Source: Mytilus trossulus (taxonomy: Eukaryota). From it: a DNA stretch of 64,000 nucleotides. The notes beneath the pieces were generated by a model, which did no database searches, was not told the origin of the DNA, and saw only the letters and a program-made list of their open reading frames with translations. Position numbers and translations under genes: made by a program. Shown here one piece after another: positions 16,811 to 53,200 of this stretch (the first letter of the stretch is position 1; every line of letters starts with the position of its first letter). The stretch spans positions 40,672,001 through 40,736,000 of the forward strand of contig NC_086376.1 of NCBI RefSeq assembly GCF_036588685.1. Reading direction: 5' to 3'.

Positions 16811-16838
16811 CGTACAAAGAAAGCAGTCAGTGAAAATG

Positions 16839-17862: not shown

Positions 17863-18092
17863 CTAAAAATAGATATACAGTAATTACAATCTTTTTGTAA
17901 AAAGATAAAAATTCTATTACATAACATATTTACCTGAATCAAAGCATATCAATCAGGTCCAGTGACCATACAGTATTACTAAAAGATTTAGTCCAGTGAC
18001 CAAAGAGTATAACGTCCAGTGACTTCCAACACACACATATTACATCAATATTCATATAGTAAAAACAATTCTGTAAATAAAAAGACTTAATA

Positions 18093-20444: not shown

Positions 20445-20901
20445 TCACCGTTCTCCAACCACCCTCGGACTTATCCGCGATTCTAATTAATTTATTTCTC
20501 TTCTTGAGCTGGACAGACGAATCTTCTAAAACCCTAACTGCCTTTTTAGGTCGATTCTTCTCAATGTAGCCTATTGCCGTGCTTATACTGTCTTGAATGT
20601 CAGAGTTAAGCTCAAATTGTAACTGATTCCCCTTAAATTTAAAGGTATTCTCTGCCTTCTTTGCTCTCTTTACTAACGTCTCTGTAGTATCGGAGAAATT
20701 CTTCTCTATACCGGAAAGTTTATTATTGAAATAAGTTGTCATCAAAGAAAACAAATCTGCGTTTGAAACTTCAGGTGCCCTATCTTGCTCTGAATTACCT
20801 TTTCTCTTTGTTGGTTCAGCAGCAGAACGTAAAGCTTCAATTGACTTGTCAGGAGACTTGGTTAATTCTCTATCGTCGAGGTCTAGCTCTGAATCGGACA
20901 T
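20080..20901 (-). CDS. gag: DIRS/PAT gag-like protein with CCHC zinc knuckle
   Basis: 273 aa ORF; CYNCGMQGHWARDC; IRIADKSEGGWRTVNEY motif; ATG 4 nt after repeat A1. Confidence 0.88.
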   Translation of the reverse strand: MSDSELDLDDRELTKSPDKSIEALRSAAEPTKRKGNSEQDRAPEVSNADLFSLMTTYFNNKLSGIEKNFSDTTETLVKRAKKAENTFKFKGNQLQFELNSDIQDSISTAIGYIEKNRPKKAVRVLEDSSVQLKKRNKLIRIADKSEGGWRTVNEYLSDEVASDSEDEKRIRAADNRAVKKIKAEKTDKRSSRKRPAEASGSTAQMAHNGTGGSDATFRLQPFRGGLAASGQSFGNQNSFKTSDVCYNCGMQGHWARDCRKGKARTGPSRGSSS

Positions 20902-20905
20902 CTTG

Positions 20906-21073
20906 AAAATTTGTCTGCAAGTCGAGTGGTCACCGCCCAGCCTTCGATAAACTTAAAAACCCGTTTTCTATCTATTATATACCTTACTAATTTGCATAAC
21001 TAGTTTATTCTATTGTTAAACAATAGACTAAAATAGATCCGAAAATTCATACGCATACCGCACATAAATTTAT
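20906..21073. repeat. DIRS split direct repeat A1 (168 bp; copy A2 at 16467-16634)
   Basis: Direct comparison by eye, no mismatches seen. Confidence 0.92.
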
Positions 21074-21669
21074 ATACATATGAAATAATAAAAATGATAA
21101 ATTTTACTTACATACAATAACCACTTTTAAAATACCTAATATTTACGCTATAAACATTAACGGATTAAAAAAAATTATTAGAAATGAAATATAGATGTGA
21201 AGCATTCATGAACATAATCCTTTGTAGAGTTTAGATTAAAAAGTGACCAAAAAAGTAAAAAAAAAAAATGTGGGCATATAGAATACAGAGTTATGCCCCT
21301 CCTCCCTCCAGACTCCATTAAACTTCCTGGTTTGTAAAATATACAGGAAGTTAATAATAGAAATCAAGGTCATTATTTGTTATTAATGAGATTCAATAAT
21401 ATATAACATTTGGCTTGAATTTAAATGATTGTTAATAATAAAATATTTATTTTCGAATTGTCCATGATAATTGCTCTATTTTTCACGAGATTATTTCAAA
21501 TAGTTGCTACATGAATACATGCATGTTGATCGGTTCTTATTACGATTGATTGATCATAGTTGTTTTACATCGCATCAGCGTGAAAAGGCTATAACACACG
21601 GCGATATTAACCCCATGTATTTGAAATTGAAATTTATTGCACATATATACATACACTGGTGATACATAC

Positions 21670-21892
21670 CTATTGTTGTTATCATTGCAACAAAGAAGAA
21701 AAGCGTTTCCCAGTAATTCAACGTATTATCTTCCTCACATTGATTTTCGTTGCTATTTCTTCTATGATCTTCAATGTTCATGTAAACAGCAGCACTCGTG
21801 AAAGTATACACACATAGTATAAAGACAATACCTGGTGGTGACTTGGCGATACTCAGAAGTCGTTTTATATATACAGTGACCTCAAACTTCAT
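21670..21892 (-). CDS. Divergent K2P channel gene 4, exon 1 (almost no cap)
   Basis: ATG at 21892; LNYWETLFFFVAMITTIG; donor ATAG|GTATGT; 223 nt; similar to gene 3 exon 1. Confidence 0.85.
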
Positions 21893-23331
21893 TGTAAAAT
21901 ACTAGGATCCTTTCAAATCTTTCCAAAATAAATTGGATGAATGTGTAATGACCGCTGACACAGTTTGAATAAGTTTCCGATAGACACACATGAATAATCC
22001 GAGTATACGTGATAGTCAACGATATTTAGTGCTCAGAGGACAAAACTGTTTAAAAAACTAGGTGAATTAAAGATCGAGTCGTTAAAAATCGTAAACGCAC
22101 TATTAACTTGAAATCAGCAGTCTGAAAAATATCAGAATATATTAAATTACAACTTTAGCCTATATAGGAAATACCTTTGTTCTATTTATAGTTTTAACCA
22201 TAAAAACGGAACGTTTTTAAAAGGTAGAAAAACATAATTATCACATTTTATACTGTTTGCATACTAACAACGAAAAAAATGTTTCATCTAGTTCAATTGT
22301 TATCGGTCCTGGTAACAGTCACGGGACCTGTTAAAATAAAACTAAGACAGAAGATACAAAATAAAGAAATGTCTATACAAGTACCATTAATAATCTTTTG
22401 ATCATAATGGACACTAAAAAAAAAGCTTAAACTTAATTTTAAGCATATTTAGAATTTTAACATATACATAAAAATCGACAAGGATAAATAAAAAAAAGTG
22501 TTGTATTCGTCATTAAAAAAAGTATTTAGTGGAAATCTATTTTTTAATTTGCGTAAATTAAATACATTTATCACGGTTAAAAACACTTCCATTTGAAAAC
22601 ATATGTTATAAAACAGTCAAGTTTAAAATGATTTTTTTTGTGTGTCAAGATGACATGAATTGTGTATAGGTGAAATACCACCATCTATTACCCCCATTTA
22701 ACTTTTCTTAAATTGCATTTTTTTTTATAGATTATGCAGATTTTATCTCTGTTTCAAATCAAGAAATACTTGGCAAGAGCGAAGTTTTAAATTAGTCCTG
22801 TCCAGTACTATGGAAAAAAATTCACGTATCATTTCATTGCATATAATTTTTTTTAACCATCACTGGAAGTTAACCAATCAAATTCCCCCCTTATTTAACC
22901 TGTATACATGTACAAGCTTTAGTAACCATGTAACCTCAGGTTTCCAAACTATTCTATAAAACCCCAAATAAAAATAAATAAGGTGCTTTGAAATACCCAA
23001 AATATATGTTTATGACCCAGAACTGTTTTTCTGCAATAAAATGTAGGATAAATTACCTACAACTGTCAAATTCATTTTTTCGACCTATTTTCTGTGCAAC
23101 CGGGTGTGCAAACACTGATTTGGTGGTATAACATCTATACATACTGTGGCCATTAATGTATGAATATAAACTTATTATAGATCCAACGATTACAATTGTG
23201 TTCATTAAACGCGCGTTTTGTCTACAAAAGCATCAGTGACGCCCAAATATATATATATAAAAAAGATTAAATAAAGGGTACAGAGTTATAAAGCCATGTA
23301 GACCCAAAATTTAAAAGATTTTGCCTAATAT

Positions 23332-26050
23332 AGAGGAATTGAGAAGAACTAGAAGGGCAGAACAACTCAAGAACTGTAATAAGAAGAAAGCGAAAAAAAG
23401 AGCAAACTTTATTAAGAATCCATACAACTACACCAAAAACAATGTTGGGTGGAGAAAGGACAGGGCATCAGCTTGTAGTAAGGAAGAAGTAGAGAAGTAT
23501 CTGCATTAAACACACTCAGACAAAGAAAGAGAGACACCTTTGGGATATTGCCCAAGAGTTGAAGAAGAAGAACAATCAACAATAGAATTTGAAACAATGG
23601 AAACAACATGGAAGGAAGTTTGTGAGGTGGTAAAGAAGGCAAGAACAGGATCAGCACCTGGGTACAGTGGTGTACCATACAAAGTCTACAAGAAATGCCC
23701 AAAGATACTAAGAAAACTGTGGCAGCTATTCCGAACACTATTGAAAAAAGGAACCATTCCTGAAAGCTGGCAAAAAGTAGAAGGATACTTTGTACCAAAA
23801 GATCAGGATTCAAAAGACATCTCACAGTTAAGGACAATTTCATTGTTGAGCGTCGAGGGATAAATCTACTTCTCTGTTTTGGCAAACAGGATGACGATGT
23901 ATATGTAGAGAACAGCTACATTGATACGTCTATGCAGAAAGGAGGTATTTCAGGTTTTTCAGGATGTGTAGAACACATAAGTGTTCATAGCCAACTCATA
24001 CACGAGGCTAAGACAGGAGAGAAGAATTTGGAAGTAGTATGGTTAGACCTGGCAAATGCATATGGATCAGTACCACACAAATTGATAGAGATGGCAATGG
24101 ATCACTACCACATTCCAGAACACACCAAGAAGATAGTATTAGAGTATTTTGATGGAATACTGCTGCGATTTACTGTAGATAACAAGACCACAGCATGACA
24201 GAAGTTAGAGAAAGGAATAGTTACTTGTTGTACCATCTCACAAATACTATTCATTATGAGTATGAATATCATCATGAAGGCAGCAGAAAGAGAAACAAGA
24301 GGTCCATAGACAGTTTCAGGGATTTTTCTACCAGCAATAAGAGGGTTCATGGATGACCTTACAGTAACAACATCATCCCATATTCAAGCAAGATGGATAC
24401 TGACAGCACTGGAAGAAGTAGTCACTTGGGCAAGGATGAAATTCAAGCCAAGGAAATCAAGATCAATGATACTGAAAGAAGGTTGTAGAATGGCTTAAGA
24501 AGATAGATAAGAGTGGATTGCCTGGGAAGTTTAAGGCTTGGATATACCAACATGGGCTGTTACCAAGACTGACATGGCTTCTCCTGATCTATGAAATGAC
24601 AGCAACAACAGTCGAATCTATAGAAAGAAAGATAAACAGTCTAAGAAGATGGCTAGGAGTACCACCAAGTGTTACAGCCATAGGCCTTCACAGTAGATCA
24701 TCACAACTACAGCTACCTTTAACATCAACTTTGGAGGAATACAAGGTATCACAGAGCAGACTTGTTATGACTCTCAGAGACTCGAAGGATAGCAAGATCA
24801 GTTAGGCTGGAATACATACACGAACTGGGCGTAAATGGTCATCGAGAACTGCAGTAAATCAAGCAGAACGTATTCTTCACCACAAAGACATATTTGGCAA
24901 CACCTGTACTGGTGGACAAGGCTTAGGAATGACACATTTCCAATAGTGGTCAAAGGCAACACAAAAAGAGAAGAGTAGCATGGTACAGTTAGAAATAAGA
25001 ACAGTAGAAGAAGAACAAAGCAGAGCAAAAACAGTGGAGCTTAGCCGTCAAGGAGCATGGATGTAGTGGAACTTGCCAGAAAGAAAGATCACATGGGCAG
25101 AGTTATGGAGGATGGAACCATTCAGAATTTCATTCATACTTAGGGCAGTGTACGGTACACTTCCTTCCCCTTCAAACTTACACCAATGTGGACTGATAGA
25201 AGAACCAAGCTGCAAGTTATGTGGTGAAAGAGGTACTATGGCACATATACTTTCAGGCTGCAAAGTTTCTCTGACACAGGGAAGGTATCGATGGCGGCAC
25301 GATAAGGTTCTAAAACATCTAGCAGAGATCTTAAATATGAGAGAAGAAAGAAGAGATCATCACAAACAGAGGCAAAGCAGATCAGATTCGTTAAAGAGGG
25401 AGATACGGGACATGCAACAAAGTCACAACAGCACTTCATCTTGGACAAGAGCAGTGAATGGAACATAAGAGCTGACATTGGAAAGAAGCTTGTGATTCCA
25501 GAATGCGTACAGACAACCCTACGCCCAGATATTGTAGTTTGGTCACAAAAAGATGATAGTTGCAATAGAACTGACAGTTCATTCGGAAGAGAGATGTGAA
25601 GAGGCATACCAGCGGAAAAAGGAAAAGTACACAGAGCTGATGACAACATAAAAAGAGAGAGAGGGTGGAAAGCGTGGCTGTTCCCAGTAGAAATAGGCTG
25701 CAGAGGTTTTCATGCACAGTCAGTATGGAGGATGTTACAGGCAATGCAATTAGTTGGAAAGGCAAGAAAGACAGCGGTAAGACATCTAGGGGAAGCAGCA
25801 GAGCGTTCATTTTGATGGTTATGGCATCGCCGAGATGATATGAGCTGGAAGCCGAGTGCTGTTGAGTAGAAGTTTGGCCACCTCTACTGACCCGCCAACC
25901 GGAGGATGTTATGGGACAGGGTCGAAACATCTAATGAAGGTTGGAACCATCTGAAGAAATCAAAGCACCGACAGATAGCGAAAGGGATTCAGAGATGAAA
26001 GAAGATGAGCAATCAAGAGAATATGACAGCAGAAAATCAGAATACCACCA
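23332..26050 (+). mobile_element. 5'-truncated, decayed RLE-type non-LTR retrotransposon (HERO-like)
   Basis: RT fragments RTISLLSVEG, QKGG..GC.EH, WLDLANAYGSVPH, FMDD; CKLC..HILSGC zinc finger; RHDKVL; RPDIVVW..ELTV endonuclease; many stops and frameshifts; 3' end approximate. Confidence 0.88.
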
Positions 26051-29000
26051 TCTGTAAGTAATAATCACGATAGTATTTTCCTCAGGTTACACAATCCTTT
26101 AATATATTTATTTTAAAGTCAACGTCTTATAATATTTCTAAGTGCTGATAATACCTGTCATGCACATGGGGATAGATGAGGTAGAAAGTACACTTCTCAT
26201 TTATTTAGCATGAATTTAATTCTTTTGTTAAAAATCGCTTCTTTTTAGAATTTCGCAAGCCTGATTGAAGTTTTATATAAGAAATTCTATTTACCATATA
26301 ATTAACTCGTTATACTACCAAGCTTGCACATAACCTGAATATGTATCAACGATTCGTGTTTATTTAAGTCAAGACGCCATTGCATTAACCATCGAGGTGA
26401 CCTCCAAAGACTGCCAACGCCATACAACCCGATATATATGCATACACATATATATAAATAGACTTCGTGCAATTAGATTTTTACATGTTGTTCTCCTCTT
26501 ATATTTAATGCGTTTCACTCGGTTTTAGTTTGTTACCCCGATTTTGTTTTTGTCCATGGATTTATGAGTTTTGAACAGCGGTAAACTCCTGTTGCCTTTA
26601 TGTATAAGAATGTTTTGGGTCAAATCAATTAAATAAACGGTTTGCCCTTGCTTCCAATCTTGGAAGTGTTTTAATAGCTTAACACTCTGAGTTCATGCGT
26701 AACCCATGTCTTGCAATTGAAAAAAGAATTATTAGCGATTTTCTTTGCTTATTTTGACAAAACTGACTAAAAACTGACTGCTATTAGCGAATAATCATAT
26801 CACTACTTCACTTTCGTCAACGATTGAACAGAAACAAATCATCTTTTATATTTGTCAGCTACTAGTAATTCCATTTTAATATCACTGTCGTTATTTCATC
26901 TGATTATTAATATTTAATCTCTGCCAAAATTGCTGTTATTTTCTTAAACTTTACCGAGAGAGCGTTCGCCTCCGTAGTAGAAAATACCGTCTACACTTGA
27001 TGGTAATCAAATTTGACGATTGATATCAAGGTATATTATTATGAGTCAGATTATTATCCAAAGGTTATAGAGTTATTTACATATCACTAATGAATACGTT
27101 CTGTCGCCATTTTTGCTAATTAAGGAGACAAAAATATTTTTCTTATATACAGCCTCTTGTAAGATTCTAATGATTAAAAGAAGTGTGACTTCTATAATTT
27201 AAGTGTGAAAAGTATGTTTTTAATTTATTGTTTCAATTCACTTGTAAAATATTTATTAGTTAATATATGCAGCTAATTATCTCCATTGTGTGTGAAATTT
27301 GTCACGTATTCTGTTACAAGCAATTCGATATCTTTTAGTGTAAGACATTAGGTAAAATATAAGCTAGTTACATGCAAGTTCTATTTTGTTCCAATCAAAT
27401 CTATATATATTTATCTTGAAATAAGATACTTCGTATCATTGTTTTATATTTCACCTGTCAAATACAATATTGGTCACGTATTCTTTCCCAAGCAATTTAA
27501 TTTCGCTTCTTGCAAGACATTAGGTAAACTTTAAGCAAATTACATACAAGGATGTTTTGTTTAAAACTAATCTATATTCATTCATCTTGAACATTGGTTT
27601 ATATGTCGCTTTAAAAAAACCACATATATTTATATCAAGTATACAAATTATTGCACATTTTATATTCCAAGCAATTGTAGTTAAATGAGGGTGTTATGCA
27701 TTCCATCATATGAAATTAACATTGAAATATATAAATAATAAAATTGTATTTAGAAATGTTGAACAGCAAGGGTTAGAGGTTCACACATCCACCAATAAAA
27801 CTATTCGAGACAATGACTTATTTGTACGGAAGATCTGTTAAAATGTAAGCCAAGATAGAAATTCTTCGTCATTAAAGCTTAAGATTGAAATAAACAATTA
27901 ATTTCCCCGTAGGCGACAATGGTAGCCTTTTTCGAGATACAGACTTTAGAAAGTTGATTTTTTTAACGAAACCTTGCTAGAATCAAAGAAAAGTTATTAG
28001 GACAGTATTTTTTGGTCCCAAAAATATAGGTTCGCGTTGCTTTTCTTAGCGTATTTTGTACTTATCGCCCATGCCTATCAATTTTGCCCTTAAAAATACG
28101 TGTCTTGTCCTGGCGTTGAAAAGTCATCTCAGTGCCTTTAGGGCTACGGAATAATTTTTATTTTGCCTCTTGTATAAAGCAGAGTGCACGAAGTCTCTAA
28201 AAATAAAAAAAATACGGGCGCACATATCGACCAATCAGGATTAGCCATACTCTTAATTCTGAATACCATGTTATGCTCATAAAATGGCTGCGCCCATAAA
28301 ATCTAATGGTGTATTGTAACCTATAGTCACGTCTCAGCCATTAAGCTGGTCGCACGTGCCAGATCATCTCCTTGTTGTCTCCCTTTGTTAATAAGATGGC
28401 TGCTGCTTAGATCGCGATATGATAGTACTACCATGATACTATTTCGTACTTGAACTCAGTAACTTCTGGTATATTAAAGTGCAAATTCCAAATACTAGTA
28501 CTCACAATACACGTATTCACTTACTAGATGCTGTTCCAAAGACAGAGAGTTGAAACAAATAGATTCGTATCGCCACTGTCTCACAACTTTGTTCAAACTA
28601 CTTGTAAAGATAGCAACATTACACGTATGTGATAACATCCAATTATTTTCTGTTCACCGAGATCGAAGGCATCTAGATCTTTGTTAGCCTGGTCCCATTG
28701 ATCTTTATTCAATCTTGACAAACCAAATATCTCGTCAGAAGCCTGCAGTTCGGTGATTGTCGTCTGCTGCGGTATGACATACTTGTTTTTCGTGTATTTA
28801 TTTTCTACACAAATAAGGCTGTTAGTTTTCTTGGTCTACATTTGTTATTTCCAGGCCTTTTACAGGTTACTATGCGGTATTGGTTTTGCTCATACTTGAA
28901 GGGCCTGTGGTGACCTATAGTTATATACTTCTATGTCATTTGGTGTCTTGTTGAGAATTGTCTCATTGGTAATAATAGCACATTTTCATATATTTTGTGT

Positions 29001-30917
29001 TGTGAAACCTATTTTAACAAACTCCAACTGATCTACGGTATTAACGTGAAAACCGACTCCCAAAACATCGTAAACCGCTTCCAAGGTTTCATGAATCCTC
29101 TAAACTTACGCCGAACCCTCGGAACTTAAAAAAATAATTGAAGGTCCGTTAATATATGTTTCTCATTGAACATTAGGTTCCATATGTAAGACATATTATA
29201 TTCTAAGTATATGACGCGTGCAAAATGAAATTCTTCTTTAAAAAAAGGAACTTTCAATTAATTACTAATAGCAGGAAACACTAGTGATTAATTTTTGCGT
29301 TGTTGAATGGGCATGTAAAATTATCATGTACAGCATTTTTTAAATGTTAGTTTTTATAGTCTTAAAGTTTCACAATTTCTTATTAGCTACCATGAAATTA
29401 CTAACTAAAATTAGATATTAATTTAGCAACGTCTTCATTGTTATGCTCATTGGTGAAAGGTTTTTGTTCCTAATGATGATAATTTTAAATTCTGTTCAAA
29501 GAATCTTGCTTAGAAAATGATTATGCATTTCCTTCCTCATTCATAGATTCTACAGATACAAAATGTTATTATAATTTTAAAACAAAGGCTAAAATACACG
29601 CTTTAAAAAGAACATGTTTTGTAATGCATGTCACCTGCGCTCAGATTCCAAATTTGCGTTGTTATTATACATGAAACAGATTATTCATTTAAGTTTGATG
29701 TGTAAGTGTCTACACTGCTTCAGAAAATTGAGATTTGAAATGATAAGATTTTACTAATGAATAAAAGAAAGATGCAGCTAGGGTAAACGTTAAGGTTATA
29801 TCACCCCAAACACACAGAAATCAATACAACAAAAAGTCAAACAACCAGACTTGTCATTTCTGACTTACTCATCCGATGATTATATAGTTGCTCTTTTTAT
29901 AATGAGTTCGTGTTACAATGGGCTCATGTTGCTCAGTCTTGAGTTTTCTATGTTGTGTTTAGTGAACTGTTGTTTGTCTGTTGTGCCTTTTCTAGTTCAT
30001 CATTGCTTTTCCCGTTTATTTTTTACCTCTGAATTTGAATGGCTCTTTGGTATCTTTCGCCTCTCTTTCAAAAACATGACATACGCAGACGTGAAACGTG
30101 CAATGGGAGTATTGCATTCAAGTTCAACTAACGAAACAGTAAAATGATCAATGTTGTATAATGTTATGTCACACAAACTATTTATAAAAGAAACGGCTTT
30201 GGATAAAATTGAGCTGTTTATTGGATTGATTAAATAGTTTATTTGGATCCTTCAGTCTTGATAACACATTATACACGTGTTATTGGGTTTATCAAACACC
30301 GATGCATGTTACCATACAATGTAGCTTGATTTTGTTCTAAGTGACCCATCATAGATAAGATACCGCGAGACAGTTATTGCCCCTTAGCACTGAACCATGA
30401 CAACCGATAATTGTATGAACTACAAATAGATTTGTTTTACCAAATGTTCTTATATTGCTGTAAGTGATAAAAAAAAACTAAATTGCTATTTAAGGTTTAC
30501 AGAGAAAAATCTTCATTCAGCACAAGTTTCGTAGATTTTGAAATTTATAATGAAATACATTATGGGTGATAAAAGTATATGTTGAGTCAAAAAGACAGCT
30601 CAACAACAAAGTAAAACGAATCACGACATTTCAAGGTCACTGTTGGTCTTAATGTCAAGCTTGGAATAGAGCTAGTTGAACATTCAGGGTCTACCTAACG
30701 GCACATTTTGTCAAGGACACAAGGTTCTAAAGGATATACTCAGCTCCGGATGTGAGATTTTCTCGCTGCGTTGTAGCCCTATTTGTAACCTGCGCTATGT
30801 TCTGCTCTTTGGTCGGGTTGTTGTCTCTTTGACACCTTCCCTGTTTTTGTTCCTTTTTCTACAATAGGTGACTCAATACTCACTTATATTGTTTAATTAA
30901 ACCATGGTAACCGTCTT

Positions 30918-33551
30918 CACCGTGTAGAACGCCACATGCGGGGTGTCGGCTATGTTTGACATGAGGTGGCAATTTTGAAGCGACTAAAAAGTAACAAAGA
31001 AAGTTCAAGCATCAAAATTTCCTATTTTAAGAACTCTCAGTACCATATAATGTATTGCACGGAAGGAACCATAACATAATCTATTTTCTGAAAGCAGAAG
31101 CAGTCGTTTTCAGTGTTCAGTTTTCTCAAACACATCGCCCTAGTTTTCCGTGTTGCAGATTTTAAGGCTTTATATGCAAATTGCTGTATAAAAAACTACT
31201 TTACACAACTACCCTCCGTATTATTTATATAAAATTGTATTCCTCTCGTGGACTTCTACCAAATTCTTATTTCCTAGTTAAAATTAACTGGTTTTAAAAC
31301 TATTATTCATTAGGATATAAAGTGTCGCTCGGGGTGTCAGATTTTGCATCTCAAGGGGCGGAGGCTTGTCATAAAAAAGATATATTTGCATGTAAATTAG
31401 TCTTCATATGATACATTTTATTTCAAACACAACTTCTTAACTATGACAAAATAAGGATACTTCATTTTGCCTATTTTTAGTCTGATAAAACATGTGCTTT
31501 TAATTTCATTCATAGTAAAAAATAGCTCAAAATATTTAGTTTTAAAGCTGGTAAATGATTTCAGTCACTACTATGGTCAGAAGAAAGTCGAGGCTATGGC
31601 TCAATAAACCCAAACCTGAGGGAAAATCACATAATAGTCCTCAATTTTATATCTGCCCGAAACCTCCATCACCCAAACTACATCATACTTCATCACCAGG
31701 TCTTTTGAACTTTGTTCATCGAAATTTGAAATGGTATAGACTATCCCTGCCGTTATGGCCGTTATAGATATTGTGCGTCAAGATGAATGGTTTGGACACA
31801 TTCGTTCGTGTCTCCTCAGTGAGCTGGAATACGAATATGTTTTTCTACAAGCACATCTGTATTGTTCTGGATTTTGATTCTTACAAATCAAATGCTTCTG
31901 CAAATATGTTTTGCACAAAAAAAATATTTTTACAGATGTCACATTCATACTGTCTTGTCCTTTTATTGTTAATTTTTCAATGTGTAAGGTACTGTACAAC
32001 ATCCCTGAAAGATTGTTTACAATTAGGACATTCTTTCTTTGTTTTTAAATGCGACTCCTGGTGGCGTTTTACAGCATAGTTGCCTTTAAAATTCTTGTCA
32101 CAAATTGAACACACCAATGTTTTTTGTCTATGCTTAAACATCACATGATTATTCAATGCCATTTTTGAATTAAATCAAGCACCAAAGGTGGGTAGTTGTT
32201 TATGTGTGTGTCCTTCTTTTTATGTTTTTTTAATAGGTCCATGGTACGGAATGATTTTTTGACATTTCCTACAAGGATGCTCCTCTCCGTTATGCATCTT
32301 TAGGTGCTTATTAAGGGATGACTCGTGCTTATGTCTGTTGGTACACACTTGACAAACCAACTGCTCGCCAACCTTCTCTTCGTGGTCTATTTCAAATCCT
32401 TCTCGTTAATTCCATTACTTTAACAGGAATGTATATATACGCTTATGCATTTATATAATGTATAAACAGCAACTAATCTTTTTGGATGTCGATCAGTTTG
32501 TGAAAATTAACTGATACAGTTACTAAATAAAAATAATTATAATTGTGTTTTCCCGCGTTTCGTTTAGTATAGCGGGAAAATATTGTATTGACGGGTGCGG
32601 GTCGTATGAATATATAATAGGGTCACACTTAGTGACCAATGGGTATACTTTCTGGTAGTAAAGCATAGGGTCACTTTCTAGCTGTCGTGCAACGAGTGAA
32701 CACTCAACTTTAAATTTTCTATCGAGCATGACGGGCTGTCGGCAAACTAAGATTATGTTTGCGTTGTTTATATTTGCCACGAGTATGTAGTTAATACAAT
32801 CATTTACGATCTCGACTATACATTTTCATTTACAGAGTTGAAAAAAAATCATAAAAAAAGATTAAAGATTGGTCTGTTCAAAGCATTTAATTAATTGTAT
32901 TCCTATGCAACTTAATTTATATCATTTAATAATGATTTGATAATAAATCGGTTACACCCTTCTTCATTCATACATGTACTTTTCATATTCTTACGTGTAT
33001 TTGTTAATATTTTTGTTATTTAAATGTATTATAATAAAAAAAAATTACATTACAATTATATGCATATCCAATTAAGTTTCTACGTTGAGGCTTTATTTGC
33101 TATGTTTATAAAAAAAAATGCACATTACTTATAAGACTAAAATATGGACCAAATGACATACTATAAGTTTGTAATTTGTCATCATAACAGTGTAGATGTG
33201 TTTGAATAAAAAAGTATCAGATAGAGACCGATTTATAAGAAAATGTATTCTTTTTTTATGACAAGCCTCTACCCCTTGAGATGCAAAATCTGACACCCCT
33301 CAAAATCTGCAACACGGAAAACTAGGGCGAGGTGTTTGAGAAAACTGACCACTGAAAACGACTGCTTCTGCTTTCAGGAAATAGATTATGTTGTGTTTCC
33401 TTCCGTGCAAAACAGTATTTGGTACTGAGAGTTCTTTTAAAAAATAAGAAATTTTGATGCTTGACCTTACCTTGTTACTTTTTCGTCGCTTCAAAATTGC
33501 CACCCAATGTCAAATATAGCCGACACCCCGCATGTGGCGTTCTACACGGTG
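30918..33551. mobile_element. Non-autonomous DNA transposon with Transib/RAG-like ends (CACCGTG termini, 5-bp TSD GTCTT, long TIRs)
   Basis: Outer ~35 bp perfectly inverted; imperfect TIR homology extends several hundred bp; GTCTT at 30913-30917 and 33552-33556; empty site in the inverted paralog near 52232-52236. Confidence 0.85.
31778..32415 (-). pseudogene. Decayed multi-C2H2 zinc-finger gene carried inside the TIR element
   Basis: CQVC..HLKMH, CRKC, CSIC..HQESH, CPNC, CAC..HERMC across frameshifts and stops. Confidence 0.8.
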
Positions 33552-33624
33552 GTCTTGAATTTTAAAGTGTATGCTGAATGACATTACAATTTCTTAATTC
33601 GTGATATTTTCTTCCGTATTTTAA

Positions 33625-34433
33625 AGGGGCACTAGCGACGAGATACATAAAAAATCTAGAGTATGATTTTGTTTGTTCAATCATTAAAGAAAGTGAAAAA
33701 ATGAAATATTAATTCACTTTAAGCAGCTAAAACGGTTCAATTTTGTCAAATTAAGCTAATAAAAATTGATAATGAATTATTCACTTGCAAGTGAATAATT
33801 CGACCTCATTAAACCTGTACTTATGTGAATTCCAATTCAACCCTGTGGAAAGAGATATAATAACGCATGCCTCCGGGTGCGGGAATTTCTCGTTACATTG
33901 AAGACCTGTTGGTGGCCTTCCGCTGTTGTTTTTTCTATGGTCGGGTTGTTGTCTCTTTATACATTCCCCATTTCCATTCTCAATTTTATTATCCGTGTAC
34001 GGTAATTTAAAGGACAAGAATGTAAATATTGAAAGTGAAACAAAGGTAAACAACTTATTCTTACAATCTGATTCGATCCACAAAAAAAATTAATTCTTAT
34101 TTAGGAAAAAACGTCGATAAACATACATTTTTAATCTATAATACAAAATTTAGTAGACCTATAAAAATCCAATTGCATGAGTTGCTTAATCTATGTATAT
34201 ATATGTTCATGTTTACATCGCGTATATGGTCATAGAAGGTTAACTCGAAATCGAATTAGATGGCGTCATTGCTAAAATTCACGCGAATCGAAGCTAAATC
34301 TTATTGAGACCATGGCCTGCAAATTGTTTATTTTATATTTTTGATAGTTTGGAAAAATGTTTTACATTGTTATAAATAAAATATGAGAATTTGAGTCAAA
34401 TTGGTGAACATGAATTTGATAGTTAGTGCCCCT
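33625..34433. mobile_element. Kolobok-like non-autonomous DNA transposon (TTAA TSD) with a nested SINE-like insert (~33871-33990)
   Basis: TTAA|AGGGGCACTAGC ... GTTAGTGCCCCT|TTAA; truncated copy at ~51611-52177. Confidence 0.75.
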
Positions 34434-37400
34434 TTAAATGTAGTCAGAGTTTATTTTTTTAACAATTCTCTTCAAGACCTCGCAGAAAGACAAAAAAAAC
34501 CCAACAAGTAATAACTAAAACAAATTGGATAAAAATTCTTCAGATTTTAAATTTGATAATTCTAATCTAATATATATCTGGAAAGCAACGTCATTGTCAA
34601 TCAGAGAAGAAACACTATTAGTGAGAATCAAATATTCTGCTGAAACGTATTTAAGTAAATGGGTTTCTGTTATGAATTCTATTAAGATAAATGCTAAATA
34701 TGCTTTGAAAAAGTAGAAAGTCAAACTCTTTTCTCTCTTAAATTTATCCGAAAACAAAACTGGTGCAAAAAGGTGAATTCCAAATAATAAAAAACCTCAT
34801 CGACAAATTATATAAGGATAAAATCCATAAAAATTACAAAATCAAAAACTATGAATGGATATGACCTACTTTGGACAGAAACTTACAAGACATTTCAACA
34901 CTAACATACACGGCATATCTTTATTCTCAAATCAACTTATATCGACACTCAACAAAAACAGTATATGGGTCCGACCTTATATATTCTAATATTCTGAAAT
35001 AGCCCGATCTCTAACCGGATTCAACCATACTATACATAACAGAATTAACTTTTTTTTTAAATGTGAACAGCCACAGGCATATTTCTTACTTGTGCGGGTA
35101 TTTTCCGATGAAAACATGTGATTAAACCTGGTGTAATGGCTAGCTAAAGCTCACACTTGTAACAGCAATCTTCAGTAATCTTATTCATAATAAATTTATG
35201 TTACTTGTGTAAAGTTTGCTGGTGGTCAAGTATCTGTACAGTGACAGAAATCATATCATTACATTTGAAAGGGTTTTTATAATGTACGTTAAAAGGCAGA
35301 TTTATAAAGAATATAAACGATAAAACTGAATACAATACTTGGGGAAAATATTAATAACTGTGACAATAAGCTGAGCTTTGATAACAGATATTACACTCAA
35401 AAGGTACTTTGATCTTGATTATTGTTATTTTCCATGATATTTATCATTAAGTTACATTAAACAGACTTCGTTATTGTTTTGCTTTATGATATGATATACC
35501 ATAACTCAAAACATATGTTTCTGAAAGGACGTTTCTTTAATATCCATTATTATAATTTATAAGATTTAGTGCCTTGTGATAAACTTAATGCGTTATTCTT
35601 AAAAAAAATGTTTCTAAACTGTTCTGAATATTGCAATTAAAACCGGCAGTCTGAATGACTTTTTTTCTTATAGTAAAGTATTAGGCCGCGGCATCTTTAA
35701 ATGCTAACTATTCTTTATTGATTTACTTTTTTAATAATTTCAAATGTCAAAGTATTTTCATGTTTTTTTTTGTTTTTTTTTTTACATCCAATGATATATC
35801 GACCTAAATCCGTGCTTTTTGTGGCATTGAATAATTTTTTTTCTGGACTGTTTTTTAAAATACCTGTATTTCATGAAACACACTGAGGTTCTATAGTTAA
35901 CTTGAATATTTCATGGCAACAACTTAAGACAATGGTTGGTGTTTTAAAAGAACGTTTGAAGTCAATACCGCTGCTGGTGGACCATTGAAGTCGTCTCCGA
36001 GGGTGCTCTGCAATCATTTAATTTACTTCGTACTGACAAACTGCTTAAAATTGTTCGTTTATAAATTTTGAAATGATTAAAAATGAGGTTAAAGTTTCAA
36101 CAGGCAAGATTGGCCCTGGAAAGATTCGACTTATCATTTTGTTTAGGTAATATATCATCATGACTCCGACTTTATAACTGTTTAGGTTCTCTGCTTTTAA
36201 ATAAATATTTAGCTTTCAGCATTCCTGATTATGTCGGATCTGGAAAGGAACATGGGACTTATAAAGCGTGGTTTTCCTTTTACTTTAATTTGCAGAGATA
36301 GGTTCATAATATATAATTCTAAATATGAGCCAGGAGTTAAATGTTCCTCTAAAAAGGCAAAATTCCGTATCATTGCCATGATATATTTTGGAAATCAGGT
36401 TTCAAATTGCTAGGAAAAGCATGCTCCTTTATACATCGTACAAATAAAATATGCTTGTTGCTGAATTTACGCCTAGGTAACGGTGCTAGCTGGTACAAAT
36501 TGGAAATGAAATAATTGAGAACGCGATGGCATTGAAAGGTATAAAATAACGTAAATTCAACGGAGTTCAGTGTACATGTATGTCATCAAACGCAGAAATT
36601 AAAAAGATTTAGGATTCACCAGTATTCAAACGTTTCTCTGGATGATTGTTTAACGGTTCTGAGGACTTTGTATTTTAATACATGTGCTGTGCTTTATAAA
36701 CTAAACAAATCTTTTATTGCAATATTTAACGGTTCGGAACAATTAGAGGTCACAGTCAAGCTGTTATTGTTCAGTTTAGATCTGCTATTCCTAAAACCCT
36801 TATAGCTAAGCTTAGTCCTTACCAATTACGATTCTTTATTTGATACGTTTAAAGGAAGATTAAAGAAGAAATAACTGCTTCATAAAAATGTTGTTTACAT
36901 GGAGAAGATCATTGACTGTATTCCTTCTTTTTTTTAACATCTGCTGGACGTCAGAAGGATCAAAACAATGTCAGAAGAGTATTTGCAGGCTTAAATCGTT
37001 ATACGCTATTTCAACAACAGTCGGAACTACAGTTAACATATCATAGAGTGCTATGAAACAAACAAAATGCTGAAATCTTATGGTTGTTGTATCAATGAAG
37101 CTCTGAGATAAATTTCAAAAGTACATTTACCAACAGTTTACTTAATGACGTTCATGTTTTAGAAATTTGGTTTGATTGCTACAGTCATTTTGCTGACTCT
37201 TTGCCAAGCCTTCAAAGACATGCAACTAAAGTAGCAAATATAAAACTCCTATAAACTGGTTAGATTAAAATGTTTATGTTTTTATGATAATCTACCGAAC
37301 ATACATCGCTAATTTTAACACATCACGATCAATTACACTGATGACGTTATTTAAATCCGTTCCTTTCGACAGTAATATCCATTCAACTGAAAATTATTGA

Positions 37401-38092: not shown

Positions 38093-39006
38093 GTTTCTCT
38101 ACTTTTTTGTTTTTGAATTGATTATTATTACTAGTATTCTTTTTTCTTTGACTGTTCAAGAAATTATTGTACATATTTATACGATCACATTCGTAACTGG
38201 TCACTATGCAGACAAAAAGGGTAAACATTTTGATGGTCCAACTAGAGTTATTTATTAATGCTTTCAGTTGCTGAACTTCGACAATGTTTCTTTTTCATTA
38301 TGAAAGATTTAGAAATACATCAACAATTTTACTTCGGAAGAACGTCCACAAAACAAATCGGAGCTATATAAATCAGTTTTAGGTTTTCAGAGCCTTGACA
38401 TACAAGGTCCACTCACTATTTAATGTGTGGTAAGGATCGCTAGAAAAGTTAACAATTTCAAGATTCATGTTATGGATTAGAGTGAAAATGTATTGTATGT
38501 GTGTTGAGGGGGTATACACTTCTGAAAGTGAAAAGCAAAACAAGAACTTTTCCATAGTCAAATCGTCTTGAAGTTAACTTTGAGGAAGTTAGTCAAGTGT
38601 TTTCCTTGCTCCTACGCCCCTGAATTTATAAAGACGCATCAATTTCTGAATTGAGGCAAACAAAACAATATTTCCATCTGAGATCAAGCACGTTTTTGTG
38701 GTTTCGTGTTGCATATTCTTCAGTTTTCTATGTTGTGTTTTTTTACTGTTGTTTTGTCTTTTTGTCTTTTTCGTTGTTTGTCATAGCGTTGTCAGTTTAT
38801 ATTGTATTTTTTAGTTTGAAGGTCATTTGGTATCTTTCGGCTCTTTTAAATCTTCTCCATTCTTGTGTTGAGGAAGAGGTCTGTCTGACATATAAACACT
38901 TCTGGTGGCAATTCGAACATTCATTATATGCAAATATAATTGCACTATCCGGTCTTCATACAGTGTAAACACTCCTTTTTTCTGTTGTCTCTATCGACCT
39001 ACTTAA

Positions 39007-39621
39007 CTACTTTAGTACAAGTAATCTTAATGTACAGTTCTAAAGATGCATATGTAATATACATCTGTAAAGCTATATATAAACTGTTCAGCTGTAAAGC
39101 TGTATATCAACTGTTCAGCTGTAAAGCTGTATATAAACTGTACATCTGTTAAGCTGTATATAAACTGTACAGCTGTAAAGCTGTATATCAACTGTACATT
39201 TTTAAAGCCGTATATAAACTGCAAATCTGTAAAAATGTACATCAACTGCACATTTTTAAATCTGTGTATAAGCTAAACATACAGATTCTAGCACTGCATC
39301 TTGTGTGATACAATATCTATCTACAGTTTATATACAGTTTTACAAATGCACAGTTTATACACAGTTTTACAAATGTACAGTTTATATATACAGCTTTACA
39401 GCTGTACAGTTGATATACAGCTTTACAGCTGTACAGTTGATATACAGCTTTACAGATGTACAATTTATATACAGCTTTACAAATGTACAATTTATATACA
39501 GTTTTACAGCTAAACAGTTTATGTACAGCTTTACAGATGTACATTTGATATACAGCTTTACAGATGTACATTTGATATTCAGCTTTAGAACTGTACATCT
39601 AGATTACTTGTACTAAAGTAG
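39007..39621. repeat. Foldback element: inverted arms built from 30-bp tandem repeats
   Basis: 21-bp terminal inverted repeat CTACTTTAGTACAAGTAATCT; CTGTAAAGCTGTATATAAACTG arrays in opposite orientations. Confidence 0.85.
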
Positions 39622-41873
39622 CTGTGTATTGTGCCCAAGGAACTAGACAATTGATTAAATTTTACACTTGTATATTTACATCTTAGATATGGCTGACATA
39701 TTTGACTCTCTACAGAATGCAAATACTAATAGGCAAAATGGAGATAGAAATGTATGCGTTAAACACCAGACATCAGATCTTGGGGTGATCCAAGTAAACA
39801 GAACAGTAGAACTTTGATTTATCATACTAAAAAATACACGTGATTGGTTGAGAAACGCAAACGTGATCACGCTGACGATTGAAACGAAAAGCTGTTAAAG
39901 CTATTTTCGGACTGATTATTTACATGAGGATGGATATGATAATAGATGACTAAAACATCAGAGATTTGTCGCGCTTAAAAACTTAGTTCAAAGAGCGCTT
40001 TCATTGAAAAGTGCTTGTACAAAGTCAAGATTGCGCACGTTTTTCAATTTTGTATGTTATAATTGATCACAGTTACTGTCTTATTTTCACCATCAACACC
40101 ACGATGTTGCAACTAAGGTTTTTAATGTACATGTATTTTGTTCGTTGACCCCTCTCTAATCGACTTCGAAGCAACCTTACACCAGGACGTTGTTGTGTTT
40201 TTTACATTGCGCATGCGGCTTGCCCTGCATTACATGTAACAGTATTCGTCCATACCAATTTTAAGCAAATTAAGTTGTCTTGCAGGCCTGCAGATTTTTT
40301 TGAAAATTTAGTGTTTACCCCAAGAACCGGTTTGGCCACAACATTATTTACAATTTACACAATGTGTATATGTAAAGTATGTTTAAATGAACATATGTTC
40401 TCATAGTTTATGAATTTTATTCATTATAGGTTAAAAATGCAGGCAAAGTTTAGATGTTTATGAAGTGTCCTATATTTTGACTTTAGTGGAACCTTAAGTA
40501 TATTAAGATGGGGTTTACGGAATGAGGTATTATATCAAATAATAAAACGCTTTTATTTGTTTTTGGTACAAGCGTGGACACAAATCAATGTGGCCGTGTT
40601 TTCATTGTTTGATATAGCTCGGGACATAAATAAATACGCACTTTCCCCTAAACCCGATCTCTGTTATATCGACTGTATAATATCTTTGACGATAGGTTCA
40701 GTTTATGATTACCATTTTAAAAATAAGAAATAAAACCATTGTGATAATTATGCTAAAGTGTTATTTAAATTTGTTGTTATAAGACTTTCAAAATTATTTT
40801 GAACTTACGAATATATTACCCTCATGCAAAGTTCTGATTTCTTTCCCGATTTTAGCTATTCATTAATTTGTGTCTCTGGGTGATGAGCTCTCCACTTTTT
40901 TTAGTAAGCGTATTAATTTGGCTTCAAGCAAACTGATATTTATTGTTGAAATGATCTGGTGCAGAAATATTGGTATCGTCAATTTTATTAAAGATGACAT
41001 CGAGATAGACTTTTGCTAAACAGATGGGAATTACATTTCCCCGCGTTACAACGAATAGCGGGAAATATTTGTATCAACGATGCGTATGAATTTTCTAATT
41101 TAGTCACGTGAAAATTTTCATGTGCGGGAAAATATTTTGAAAGCCTTCACTTTCTACCCAAAAGTCAGTGAGTCGTAGTGTCAAGTTTGTTTTTACAGAT
41201 TTCACATTTTAGATTTCATGTTTCTGCTCATGGTTAGTGGTGTTTTGTTACGAATAATTATAATTAATTTTATTTTTCTTCTTTTTTAAATACTGTCCAA
41301 GTATACCTCTGAAGACGGTCTTCTGAGAATAGGGTTTGGACGCGGGTTTCCAACTTTTTTCCAAGTGCATATTTGGTATTTAAAGTTGACCCGAGTTAAC
41401 TCGTTTTAGTTGGTTGTTCCTGACCGGCGGGATCGTCGATGAAAGAGCCTTTGAAATTATTTGGTATTTTTCAAAAAATACAACATATATGCCATATATC
41501 AGCATTCAGTAATCATCTATAATTGTATTGATTTATTTATGTATTTATGCTTATGAATTGTATTTTCAACTTATTAAAATCCGGTGTCCTTCGAGCTGTC
41601 TGGGTTATCGGCTTTACAAAATGAATATATTGTTTTGTTTTATTCAAGGATTTGTATATTTGTAACTATACAAATCCTTGTTTTATTATAGCCCATATAT
41701 TCAAGGGGAAAAAGGTTGAGGTAATACTATCTAACCCTTTTATTTGTTTATAATTATAACTTTATTAAAACTCAACGGTTGCAAACTTGTCGAAAGGAAT
41801 ATATTTGAATATGAAGCAATCACTTTTAATATGTAAACTTTTCATTAAGATGAAGACAAAAACATCGTTGCGT

Positions 41874-42460
41874 GTACATCTAAGGGGTGTGAATAATGCG
41901 AAGAATATAGAACGTCTGAGGGGTGTGAAGAATGCGAAGAGTATAGTACATCTCAGGGGTGTGAAGAATGCGACGGATATTGTACATCTCGGGGGTGTGA
42001 CGAATGCGAAGAATATAGAACGTCTGAGGGGTGTGAAGAATGCGACGGATATTGTACATCTCAGGGGTGTGAATAATGCGAAGAATAGAGAACGTCTGAG
42101 GGGTGTGAAGAATGCGAAGGATATAGTACATCTCGAGTGTGAAGAATGCGAAGGATATATTACATTTCAGAGATGTGACGAATGCGAAGAATATAGTACG
42201 TCTCAGTCGGGTGTCGAATGCGAATAATATAGTACGTCTAAGAGGTACGGAGAATGCGAAGAATATAGTACGTCTAAGAGGTACGGAGAATGCGAAAAAT
42301 AATTATATAGTACATCTAGGGGGTGTGAAGAATATGAAGAATATAGTATATCTTAGGGGTGTTAAGAATGCCAACAATTATACAAATAGTACATCTCAGG
42401 GCTGTGAAAAATGCCAATAATGTAGTACATTTCAGGGTGTGATGAATGCCAACAATATAC
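41874..42460. repeat. 36-bp minisatellite (~16 copies) downstream of K2P gene 5
   Basis: Unit GTACATCTCAGGGGTGTGAAGAATGCGAAGAATATA. Confidence 0.9.
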
Positions 42461-43064: not shown

Positions 43065-44059
43065 CTACGGCTTTGGTGTGTTTTCTTTTGATCTGCTCTC
43101 AGATGAATCTAAAGAATGTTTTTTTGCCCTCTTTAATTCGTTTTGAATATTAGTTTCAATGTTTTTCTTTACTTCTGATATTTTACCCTTCGCACTGGTC
43201 CCTGCTTTCGACACTTTGTCTTTTGCTTTATTCATTTCTTTGCCGACAGAGGCCATCTTTTCTTTTCCCGCCTCAACAACTCGTTCTCTAGCTTTATTCA
43301 TATGATCTTTCGCTTTGTCTATTTGAACAGTGAAGAATTCGATTCCAACATTAACGCACATGGAAACTAAGGAAAGACCCATGAATAAATATATTGCGGA
43401 GATGAGAAAATATTTCGGATGCTCAGGTACTACATCCCCAAATCCAATAGTACTTATAGATATAAATACAAAATATATGCAATCCAAGAAATCCCATGAT
43501 TCCCAAAATTTGTACATGATTGCACCAAGAAAAATATAAATCAGTAATATTATGCAAGCAATTGATATTGGCAAGTTGAAAGAGTCATCAATCTCTATGT
43601 CATACATAACTTTTACGCGATCTGTTGAAGACAAAGTCGACTGGACATCAGGTGATTCATCTAAAGAATCGTCACTTCCGGTTTTTGATTTTAAACTCGA
43701 ATTTGGAGAAGGACTTAATCCAGATTGTTTTTTTACAAACACTATTGACTCTTCGCTCTTGCTTTTTTTCTTTGTAGATTGGTCTATTTCGTTACTACAT
43801 GTTCCATTTTCTGCATTCTGAACGCTCTGTTTATTACTTTTTCTACTGCTCAGGCGACTTCGGACTTGTCTAATTACTTTTTTGCGGAAGGTTCCAGTGT
43901 AGTAGTATCGACGTGCACGTGCATACATCCATTTAAGAAGGACAGTAAATCGTCTACCAACTTCTGCCAATACTAGCAACGCGAGAGGTATGCCCAATAC
44001 AGCATAAACCATGGCTATAAATTTGCCAATTCCAGTAAGCGGTACTATGTTTCCATAAC
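43065..44059 (-). CDS. K2P potassium channel gene 5, exon 2; spliced product 486 aa
   Basis: Acceptor TTACAG|GT TAT GGA AAC (GYGN); YAVLGIPL; long Ser/basic M2-M3 loop; P2 STIGFGD; 466+995=1461 nt in frame. Confidence 0.95.
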
Positions 44060-50296: not shown

Positions 50297-53200
50297 TAGT
50301 TATTAAAAAAGAAAATCAATATCAGCAATATTATCAATAAAGAAACAGTTATATAGCATTTAAAGATGCCGCGGCCAAATACTATACTAAAAGGAAAAAA
50401 GTCATTCAGACTGCCAGTTTTAATTGCGATATTCAGAACAGTTTATATACATTTTTTTTTTAAATAACTCATAAAGTTTATCACAAGGCATTAAATCTTA
50501 TAAATTACAATAATGGATATTAAAGAAAAGTCCATTCAGAAACATATGTTTTGAGTCAGGTATATCATAAAGCAAAACAATAATAATGAAGTCTGTTTAA
50601 TGTAACTATATGATAAATATCATGGAAAATAACAATATTCAAGATCAAAGTGTTTTTTTGAGTGTAATATCTGTAATCAAAGCTCAGCTTATTATTTGTT
50701 AATATTTTCTCAAGTATTGTATTCAGTTATATTGTTTATATTCTTTATAAATCTGCCTTTTAACGTACATTATAAAAACCCTTTCAAATGCAATGATATG
50801 GTTTCTGTCACTGTACAGATACTTGACAGCAAACCTTACGCAAGTAACATAAATTTATTATGAATAAGATTACTGAAGATTGCTGTTACAAGTGGGAGCT
50901 TTAGCTAGCTATTAAACCAGGTTTAATCACATATTTTCATCGGAAAAATACCTGCACAAGTAAGGAATATCTCTGTTGTTGTTCACATTTTAAAGTTTAT
51001 TCTGTTATGTATAGCATGGTTGAATCCGGGCTATTTCAGAATATTCGAATGTAAGGTCGGACCCGTATACTGTTTTTGTTGAGTGTCGATGTAAGTTGAT
51101 TTGAGAATAAAGATGTGTCGTTTATGTTAGTGTTGACTTGTCTTGTAAGTTCCTGTCCAAAGCCTGGTCATATCCATTCATAGTTGTTGATTTTGTAATT
51201 TTCATGGATTTTATCCTTATTGAATTTGTCTATGAGGTTTTTTTAATTTGATTTCACCTTTTTGCACCAGTTTTGTTTTCGGATAAATTTAAGAGAGAAA
51301 AGAGTTTCTACCTTTTCAAAGCATATTTAGCATTTATCTTAATAGAATTTATAACAGAAACCCATTTCATTCTGCTGAAAATCTATTGTTTCAGCAGAAT
51401 CTTTTGATCTTTACGAATAGTGTTTCTTCCCTGTTTAACACATCGTAAAAATTTCCAAATTTGACGTTGCTTTCCAGAAATATATTAGATGTGATTAATT
51501 TTGAATTATTAAATTTAATTTTTATCCAATTTGTTTTAGTATCGCTTCTTTTTGTTTTGTCTTTCTGCGAGGTCTTGAAGAGAGTTGTTAAAAAAATAAA
51601 ATAATTTACAGGCCATGGTCTCAATAAGATTTAGCTTCGTTTCGTGTGAATTTTAGCAATGACGCAATCTAATTAAATTTAGAGTTGACCTTCCATGACC
51701 ATGAACACATAAACATAGATATAAACAGATTAAGCAACTCGTGCAGTTGGATTTTTATAGGTCTACTAAATTTTGTATTATAGATTAAACATTTATTTTT
51801 ATCGTCGTTTTTTTCCTAAATAAGAATATTTTTTTGGTGGATCGAATCAGTCATTCAAGTTGTTTACCTTTGTTTCACTTTCAATGTTGACATTCTTGTC
51901 CTTTAAATTACCGTACACGGATAATGCAAGCGTTATTATATCTCTTTCCACAGGGTTAACATGGAGTTCACATAAATACAGGTCTAATGAGGTCGGACTT
52001 GATTATTTACTTGCAAGTGAATAATTCATTATCAATTTTTATTAGCTTAATTTGACAAAATTGAACCGTTTTAGCTGTATAAAGTTAATTTATATTTCAC
52101 TTTTTCACTTTCATTAATGATTGAACTAAAAAAAATCATACTTTAGATTTTTTATATATCTCGTATCTAGTGCCCCTTCAAAATATGGTAGAAAATCATT
52201 GTAATATCATTAAGCATACACTTTAAACTTCAAGACGGTGACCATGGTTGAAACAATATAAGTGAGTATTGAGTCACCTATTGTAGAATTAGGTACAAAA
52301 AATCAGGAAAGGTGTCAAAGAGACAACAACCCGACCAAAGAGCAGAACACAGCACAGGTTACAAACAGGGCTACAATGCAGCGAGAATATCTCACATTCG
52401 GAGCTGAGAATATCCTTTATAACCTTGTGTCCTTGACAGAATGTGTCGTTGGGTAGACCCTGAATGTTCAACTAGCTCTATTCCAAGCTTGACATTGAGA
52501 CCAACAGTGACTTGAAATGTCGTGATTCGTTTTACTTTGTTGTTGAGCTGTCTTATTGACTTACACCCAACATATACTTTTATCACCCATAATGCATTTC
52601 ATTATAAATTTGAAAATCTACGAAACTTGTGCTGAATGAAGATTTAGCTCTGTCAACCTTCAATAGCAATTTAGTTTTTTTTATTTATCACGTACAGCAA
52701 CAGAAGAACATTTGGTAAAACAAATCTATTTGTAGTTCTCGTCTGACAACATACAATTATCGGTTGTCATGGTTTAGTGCTAAGGGGCAATAACTGTCTC
52801 GACGTATCTTATCTATGATGGGTCACTTAGAACAAAATCAAGCTACATTGTATGGTAACATGCATCGGTGTTTTATAAACCAAATGACACGTGTATAATG
52901 TGTTATCAAGACTGAAGGATCTAAATAAAGTGTCCAATCAATCCAATAAACAGCGCAATTTTATCTAAAGCCGTTTCTTTTATAAATAGTTTGTGACATA
53001 ACACTGTGCAAACTTGATTATTACACTGTTTCGTTAGTTTAACAGGAATGCAATTCTCCCATTGCGCATTTCGTCTGTTTATGTTGTGTTTTTAAAAGAG
53101 AGGCGAAAGATACCAAAGTTGAATTCATAACAAACATAAACGGGAAAAGCAATGGATGAAAAAAAAAGCAACAAACAAACAACAGTTTACTAAACACAAC

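Follow-up and report, generated by a model that had tools for sequence, protein, structure and literature searches.

An apparently undescribed non-autonomous CMCT-type transposon with a broken zinc-finger gene in Mytilus trossulus

CAC ends combined with a 5-bp duplication of the target site (TSD) are features of Transib, ProtoRAG and protostome RAG-like transposons (PMC1131882, PMC7204232, PMC10462144, PMC9435367). More broadly, CA..TG ends with a TSD of 2-5 bp mark the whole CMCT clade (PMC12730594), a criterion for which is that the transposase has C(2)C and H(3-4)H motifs placed after its second D and before its last E. CMC elements have TSDs of 2-4 bp (bioRxiv 10.64898/2026.08.26.747230), and Chapaev3 elements a 3-bp TWA TSD (PMC4411706, PMC3014272). 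Here we describe a 2634-bp element at positions 30918-33551 of a 64,000-nucleotide stretch of the Mytilus trossulus genome (NC_086376.1, 40,672,001 to 40,736,000, forward strand; referred to below as the window). It has defined boundaries, a 5-bp TSD and an empty counterpart site; its ends are multi-copy, its zinc-finger gene occurs in other copies, and the copy at this locus has decayed. It is apparently an undescribed non-autonomous CMCT-type transposon with a zinc-finger gene: no account of an element with CAC ends, a 5-bp TSD and a free C2H2 gene was found in the literature searched, a scope that did not include Repbase and Dfam.

Among the closest described systems, non-autonomous Transib elements (PMC1131882; Hopper/Kodama, bioRxiv 10.64898/2026.08.26.747230) have in common with it CAC termini, a heptamer one base off CACAGTG, a 5-bp TSD, asymmetric arms and the lack of a transposase, here putatively lost through internal deletion. 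However, its arms extend over 250-450 nt (about 40 nt in Transib) without a nonamer-like AA block, its target, GTCTT, is not GC-rich, and it has a separate seven-finger gene, whereas canonical Transib carries a transposase only. The RAG-like (RAGL) and ProtoRAG elements (PMC7204232, PMC10462144, PMC8289069, PMC9435367) also have a CAC heptamer, a 5-bp TSD and non-autonomous forms of similar size, and their two-gene layout would be matched if the parent proposed below is right. Unlike them, the element has no RAG1L or RAG2L gene or remnant in a six-frame Pfam scan and no TR2/AAA block, and its array is of the C2H2 type rather than kelch-PHD. Chapaev and Chapaev3 elements (PMC4411706, PMC3014272; consensus CMC_M.nervosa_3, PMC10294476) likewise have CAC termini, and the first 9 nt of the element are identical to one bivalve Chapaev3 consensus, but Chapaev3 has a shorter TSD and TIRs (terminal inverted repeats) of 11-19 nt in Anolis, and its zinc modules (Chapa, RING) lie inside the transposase, whereas the finger gene of the element is free. 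TIR background is given in PMC8289069 and PMC8355894.

Ends, arms and target site

An earlier note, made from the letters of the window, had described a transposon with a C2H2 zinc-finger array in place of a transposase, and its ends, TSD, empty site and fingers were all found again. The element begins with CACCGTG (30918-30924) and ends with CACGGTG (33545-33551), one base off CACAGTG, the heptamer of the recombination signal sequence (RSS). GTCTT flanks it on both sides and occurs once in the empty paralogous segment. The host DNA is one half of an inverted segmental duplication (85-88% identical, gaps included), and the alignment of the paralogous segment runs across the insertion junction. 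When the insertion was split into element and duplication in 21 ways, only the 5-bp split gave complementary ends, 36 nt in length; the other 20 gave 0-1 nt. Thus, no split of 2-4 bp, including the 3 bp expected for the TWA of Chapaev3, yields complementary ends. The 5-bp TSD comes from this single site; with the CA..TG termini it lies within the range of the CMCT clade. The first 16 nt of the element match the window twice, at the two ends of the element, whereas shuffling leads one to expect 0.08 matches.

The features of the element and its target are as follows.

30913..30917, plus strand: left TSD, GTCTT, by flank comparison and the empty site
30918..31165, plus strand: left outer TIR, beginning CACCGTG, first 36 nt perfect; 91% identical to a second left end, L001
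31166..31330, plus strand: 165-nt block confined to the left arm; also in the L001 left end, whose homology reaches element position 390
31331..31530, plus strand: left inner arm, inverted relative to 33085-33299 by arm alignment and opening with the second GGGGTGTC motif
31778..32415, minus strand: broken stand-alone open reading frame (ORF) for a seven-finger protein of about 215 amino acids, by Pfam and frameshift-aware alignment; intact relatives P0185, P0135 and P0129
32535..32793, no strand assigned: 259-nt segment upstream of the finger ORF, recognised by a depth spike and by a joint that connects 32534 with 32794 in three of the four runs
33085..33299, minus strand: right inner arm, by arm alignment
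33300..33551, minus strand: right outer TIR, by arm alignment
33552..33556, plus strand: right TSD, GTCTT, by flank comparison and the empty site
52232..52236, minus strand: empty paralogous target site with a single GTCTT, in the inverted segmental duplicate

The long, asymmetric arms reported earlier were also recovered. The outer arms, of about 250 nt, are 93% identical (231/248), the 165-nt block is present on the left side only, and the inner arms, of about 200 nt, have 73% inverted homology. GGGGTGTC and CAGATTTT are each present twice in the arms. Neither arm contains an exact RSS nonamer within its first 900 nt, in line with the earlier note, and Rfam returned one chance-level match only.

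Contigs of each of the three DNA runs described below bypass the 259-nt segment, which has a hairpin near one end (fold z = -2.0) and is probably a nested piece of a repeat, with the hairpin at its terminus. A pair of TTTTCCCGC motifs near 32550-32580 had been considered as promoter sites, but since other copies lack the segment, we abandoned this reading.

The inverted segmental duplication extends over about 28300-33100 and 33560-35700 on one side and 50300-54800 on the other, and is the source of the empty site. In the empty target (52228-52246, minus strand), CACCGT, identical to the first six bases of the TIR, directly overlaps GTCTT, and the filled flank differs by one base. At this one site, the likeness may reflect chance or a preference for end-like targets.

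Other copies and the zinc-finger gene

The element is a member of a multi-copy family, because a second left end has a different flank. This end, L001, was the sole locus recovered in a metagenome scan; it starts with CACCGTG, is 91% identical over the outer arm and holds most of the left-only block. Its contig is probably chimeric and gives no element interior, because the tail after about position 1640, past the transposon homology, reads as an open frame of bacterial type (1640-1805), which we take to resemble bacterial FG-GAP-repeat proteins. When the TIR pattern was searched elsewhere, viral contigs gave no match at 21 nt and at least 120 chance loci at 14 nt (26/64 parts scanned), and prokaryote genomes gave 74 loci at 18 nt. 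BLAST of the element against all 196 retrieved loci found an extended match only in L001, together with one 24-nt match in L040, and no long or autonomous copy among them.

Words of the element are shared by 24 public runs, none of which reaches half of the words of this copy; the runs labelled "mollusc metagenome" have small shares. Four of the 24 were mapped onto the element, i.e., three DNA runs (X1, X3 and X9) and one labelled as RNA, which did not cover the finger ORF and has no bearing either way. The possibility, raised in the earlier note, that the zinc-finger segment is limited to this copy does not hold, since divergent contigs of the three DNA runs carry it. These tile the finger region at about 6-12% difference, as many as 9 of them at a listed site. 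The extra bases at 31917 and 32217 are missing from them; they have sense codons at both in-frame stops of the present copy, and restore the His and Cys of finger 5 at 31991 and 31977. One X9 contig covers 31517-31833 and so connects finger 7 with the left interior, which X1 and X9 contigs connect with the inner arm. The finger gene is therefore associated with the left arm at other loci too; no contig spans the whole element. Loose contig ends were dominated by a high-copy repeat in the flank. Summed depth over the outer arm exceeded that over the fingers 66-, 29- and 73-fold in the three DNA runs. These ratios are rough, and summed contig depth is not copy number, but they suggest that the majority of family members consist of ends only, with no finger gene.

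As the earlier note had proposed, the interior carries about seven decayed C2H2 fingers, here located on the minus strand (Pfam zf-C2H2, PF00096, E = 1e-5 in a read-through frame), and no transposase. The six-frame Pfam scan of the element gave no transposase family and no match to RAG1, kelch or PHD, but only zinc-finger and weak unrelated families. We refine the earlier description in that the array is encoded by a separate ORF that has an ATG of its own, and that fingers 5 (a short C2HC) and 7 (CxC) depart from the classical form. The start codon was placed at 32415 because the N-terminus of P0185, a partial protein from a profile search, aligns there; the ORF ends at 31778. Its damage comprises at least four frameshifts and two in-frame stops. 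Compared with its relatives, four bases have been added after codon 2 and one each near 32255, 32218 and 31918, a short stretch is deleted near 32200, and stop codons stand at 32177 and 31979. The copy at this locus is dead.

P0185 has a near-identical, intact N-terminus, with 59/73 residues identical to the ORF. Among 1.84 billion representatives, the matches were for the most part long generic arrays (24-32% identity), but they included two proteins, P0135 (214 amino acids) and P0129, that match collinearly from the start at 36%. P0135, in which the PF00096 array is recognised with E = 1e-26, aligns over the whole ORF with a frameshift-aware score of 376; 8 shuffles scored 32-66 and 7 generic finger proteins 97-174. 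In the structure predicted for P0135 there are seven hairpin-helix units (11 sequences; mean predicted local distance difference test score, pLDDT, 73; predicted template modelling score, pTM, 0.25). A homolog search with the decayed frame gave one generic match among longer proteins and none at similar length, fused forms not having been searched with an intact relative. Matches of the finger protein in the PDB were generic finger proteins, and those in the ESM Atlas generic C2H2 clusters only. Scans for loci related to the finger family gave one giant-virus-like finger gene (L002), one weak match (L197, 24%) and nothing else.

The unusual finger layout recurs in unannotated proteins of 214-262 amino acids. 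The C2HC-C2H2-CxC triplet was present in 15 of the 286 proteins screened (about 4750 triplets). Fourteen of these were P0135, P0129, P0173, P0181, P0194, members of their clusters, or P0155, a fragment identical to P0135; the remaining one was a generic array of 2765 amino acids. These relatives come from unannotated sources and are not named host genes. The P0181 cluster has 12 members, 84-98% identical, on Mb-scale contigs in ENA, and about half of them are truncated or frameshifted, which looks like the pattern expected of a multi-copy transposon gene. P0199 (CAC5365699.1), a predicted Mytilus coruscus protein, has a loosely similar seven-finger layout. P0199 and P0188 are Mytilus proteins named "KRAB" at source, for which the precomputed Pfam list holds finger families only; the N-terminal 100 residues of P0188 are not finger.

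Transposase class and origin of the finger gene

Our preferred account, which we put at a little short of an even chance, is that the element is a non-autonomous cut-and-paste transposon with a 5-bp TSD and a broken resident second gene, moved in trans by a CMCT transposase from the Transib/RAG side. The earlier note had read it as a cargo-carrying derivative of Transib/RAG type; it is non-autonomous, cut-and-paste and multi-copy, but neither the class nor the cargo stands as then stated. Of the two features taken as the mark of Transib and ProtoRAG, CAC ends and a 5-bp TSD, the TSD does favour that side, because it differs from the 2-4 bp of CMC and the 3 bp of Chapaev3. The RSS-like heptamer, although present at both ends and in L001, does not: it is not diagnostic, because the bivalve consensus CMC_M.nervosa_3, labelled Chapaev-3, opens with the same nine bases (CACCGTGTA; PMC10294476 supplement file 24). 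Of the 16 supplement files of that paper searched (first 400 characters per record), 15 lacked the TIR motifs and none had the long motifs; the supplement of PMC9435367 gave no TIR match.

Along with that shared opening, several observations weigh against a Transib/RAG assignment. At TIR positions 35-36 (positions 5-6 of the RSS23 nonamer), where AA is conserved in 21 Transib families (PMC1131882) and is reported not to be invariant across the wider Transib lineage (bioRxiv 10.64898/2026.08.26.747230), both arms have AT. The element has TAG at positions 8-10, where RAG-like TIRs have AAA, and it does not match the protostome RAG-like TIR consensus, CACTWMCAAACKTYKBB, beyond CAC. Described Transib and RAG-like TIRs are tens of bases long, e.g., 37 bp, and close Transib relatives have TSDs of 5, 3 and 2 bp, with a warning against classing elements by their ends (both bioRxiv 10.64898/2026.08.26.747230). 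A survey of mollusc genomes is reported to have found only one Transib ORF. Finally, because neither an autonomous element nor a transposase was found among the retrieved loci, the class assignment rests on one TSD. The RAG reading is therefore weaker than proposed, with only the 5-bp TSD at one site favouring Transib/RAG. We liken the working of the element to that of a non-autonomous Transib; by its ends, it is filed under the CMCT clade, and membership of the Transib or RAG-like groups is not claimed.

The same anatomy and resident gene could instead have been served by a transposase of another CMCT branch (Chapaev, Chapaev3 or EnSpm-like), with the TSD shifted to 5 bp. This would accommodate the nine shared bases and the missing Transib/RAG hallmarks; CAC..GTG ends are common to EnSpm and Chapaev3, CMCT TSDs extend to 5 bp, and both TSD length and termini vary even between close Transib relatives. 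However, beyond 9 nt the element no longer resembles the Chapaev3 end, and splits of the length known from Chapaev3 or CMC leave no complementary ends, so that we consider this somewhat unlikely. Very unlikely, in our judgement, is a deletion derivative of a true RAG1L-RAG2L transposon of ProtoRAG type, or an unrelated family with a 5-bp TSD such as hAT5 (PMC12730594). Non-autonomous RAG-like elements of 1.5-2.6 kb with a 5-bp TSD do occur in pearl oyster and lancelets (PMC7204232 supplement file 2), but their TIR similarity is short and bipartite, no frame of our element matches RAG1, kelch or PHD, the protostome consensus is matched only in CAC, and hAT termini have G at position 3, where the element has C.

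The finger gene looks like the resident second gene of a transposon lineage rather than a one-off capture, because of the contigs from other runs, P0185, the shared finger layout, and the multi-copy, partly decayed cluster. The alternative is that a host gene or retrocopy was captured long ago as Pack-type cargo, plays no part in transposition and owes its amplification to passive spread, as in the view of the earlier note that the element is cargo spreading zinc-finger genes. That view is doubtful, since this copy is dead and its relatives have the look of a gene at home in a transposon, not of one taken from a host. Passive capture would fit with finger-bearing forms being a small minority, to judge from the rough depth ratios, with the decay of this copy, which is like that of neutral DNA, and with the layout of P0199. 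On the other hand, neither the homolog searches nor the search of all representatives found a close named host gene, the nearest relatives lack annotation and one related cluster comprises multiple copies, decayed ones among them, contigs of other copies keep sense codons and lack two of the frameshifts, and P0199 has no triplet and scores within the control range. We regard capture as unlikely. Weighing against residence, P0173, P0181, P0194, P0199 and P0192 score 145-192, overlapping the generic controls (97-174), so that the kinship of this wider set rests on finger layout, and P0192, like P0199, lacks the triplet; the residence of P0135, P0129, P0173, P0181 and P0194 in transposons is putative.

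Returning to a resident gene with a Transib/RAG-side partner, an autonomous parent would have carried a DDE transposase and a seven-finger gene, the former being lost through internal deletion. A transposase acting in trans would bind the long inverted arms, cut at CAC and insert with a 5-nt stagger. At this locus, the element went into one arm of the segmental duplication, with CAC ends and a 5-bp TSD, and its arms and gene decayed thereafter. Ends without the finger gene would come to far outnumber finger-bearing copies. The finger protein is predicted to bind DNA, most simply the arms or promoter of the element, the repeated motifs GGGGTGTC and CAGATTTT being plausible targets, and it may act as a cofactor or regulator that helps or restrains transposition. 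Two-gene DNA transposons with a small DNA-binding gene inside the TIRs, kept in some derivatives, are familiar from Harbinger (Myb/SANT), CACTA (TnpA) and VANDAL (VANC); they differ from this element in transposase class, TSD and protein fold.

A bolder proposal, which we consider doubtful, is that the element represents an undescribed, widespread two-gene Transib/RAG-type lineage of marine invertebrates, with the seven-finger protein in the slot of RAG2. Such a second subunit, which would read the long asymmetric arms, would have been recruited independently, and the lineage would supply host genomes with mobile finger arrays. Acquisition of a second gene by a Transib-type transposase gave rise to RAG, and a sister lineage with a different one would, if true, provide a natural comparison for partner recruitment, testable in vitro. 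The origin of invertebrate finger-gene expansions is a further question on which a C2H2 array borne by a transposon has a bearing, and finger genes annotated as "host" genes in bivalves may in some cases be mobile. Should the partner be Chapaev-like or the gene plain cargo, the element would be of use as a new repeat family for mollusc-type genomes, but not much beyond that.

The surrounding window

AT-rich animal DNA makes up the window, in which two-pore potassium-channel-like genes form a tandem cluster (1200-15100, 21575-21901 and 43065-48812), each gene with similar two-exon pieces; Ion_trans_2 was confirmed for one exon. On the minus strand at 16100-21100 lies a tyrosine-recombinase retroelement of DIRS/Ngaro type, whose split direct repeats are 99% identical and whose long open frames are as follows.

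20080-20952, minus strand: zinc-knuckle gag
18093-20444, minus strand: reverse transcriptase and RNase H with a Dam-like tail
16839-17862, minus strand: recombinase, in two frames

Broken frames at 23400-25900 look by eye like a non-LTR (long terminal repeat) retrotransposon, two pieces that were scanned having no Pfam match. A 36-bp tandem array at 41815-42457 is open in several frames, with no Pfam match for the one frame scanned. At 39000-39628, two arrays of a 27-bp unit stand in inverted orientation and form a long imperfect palindrome.

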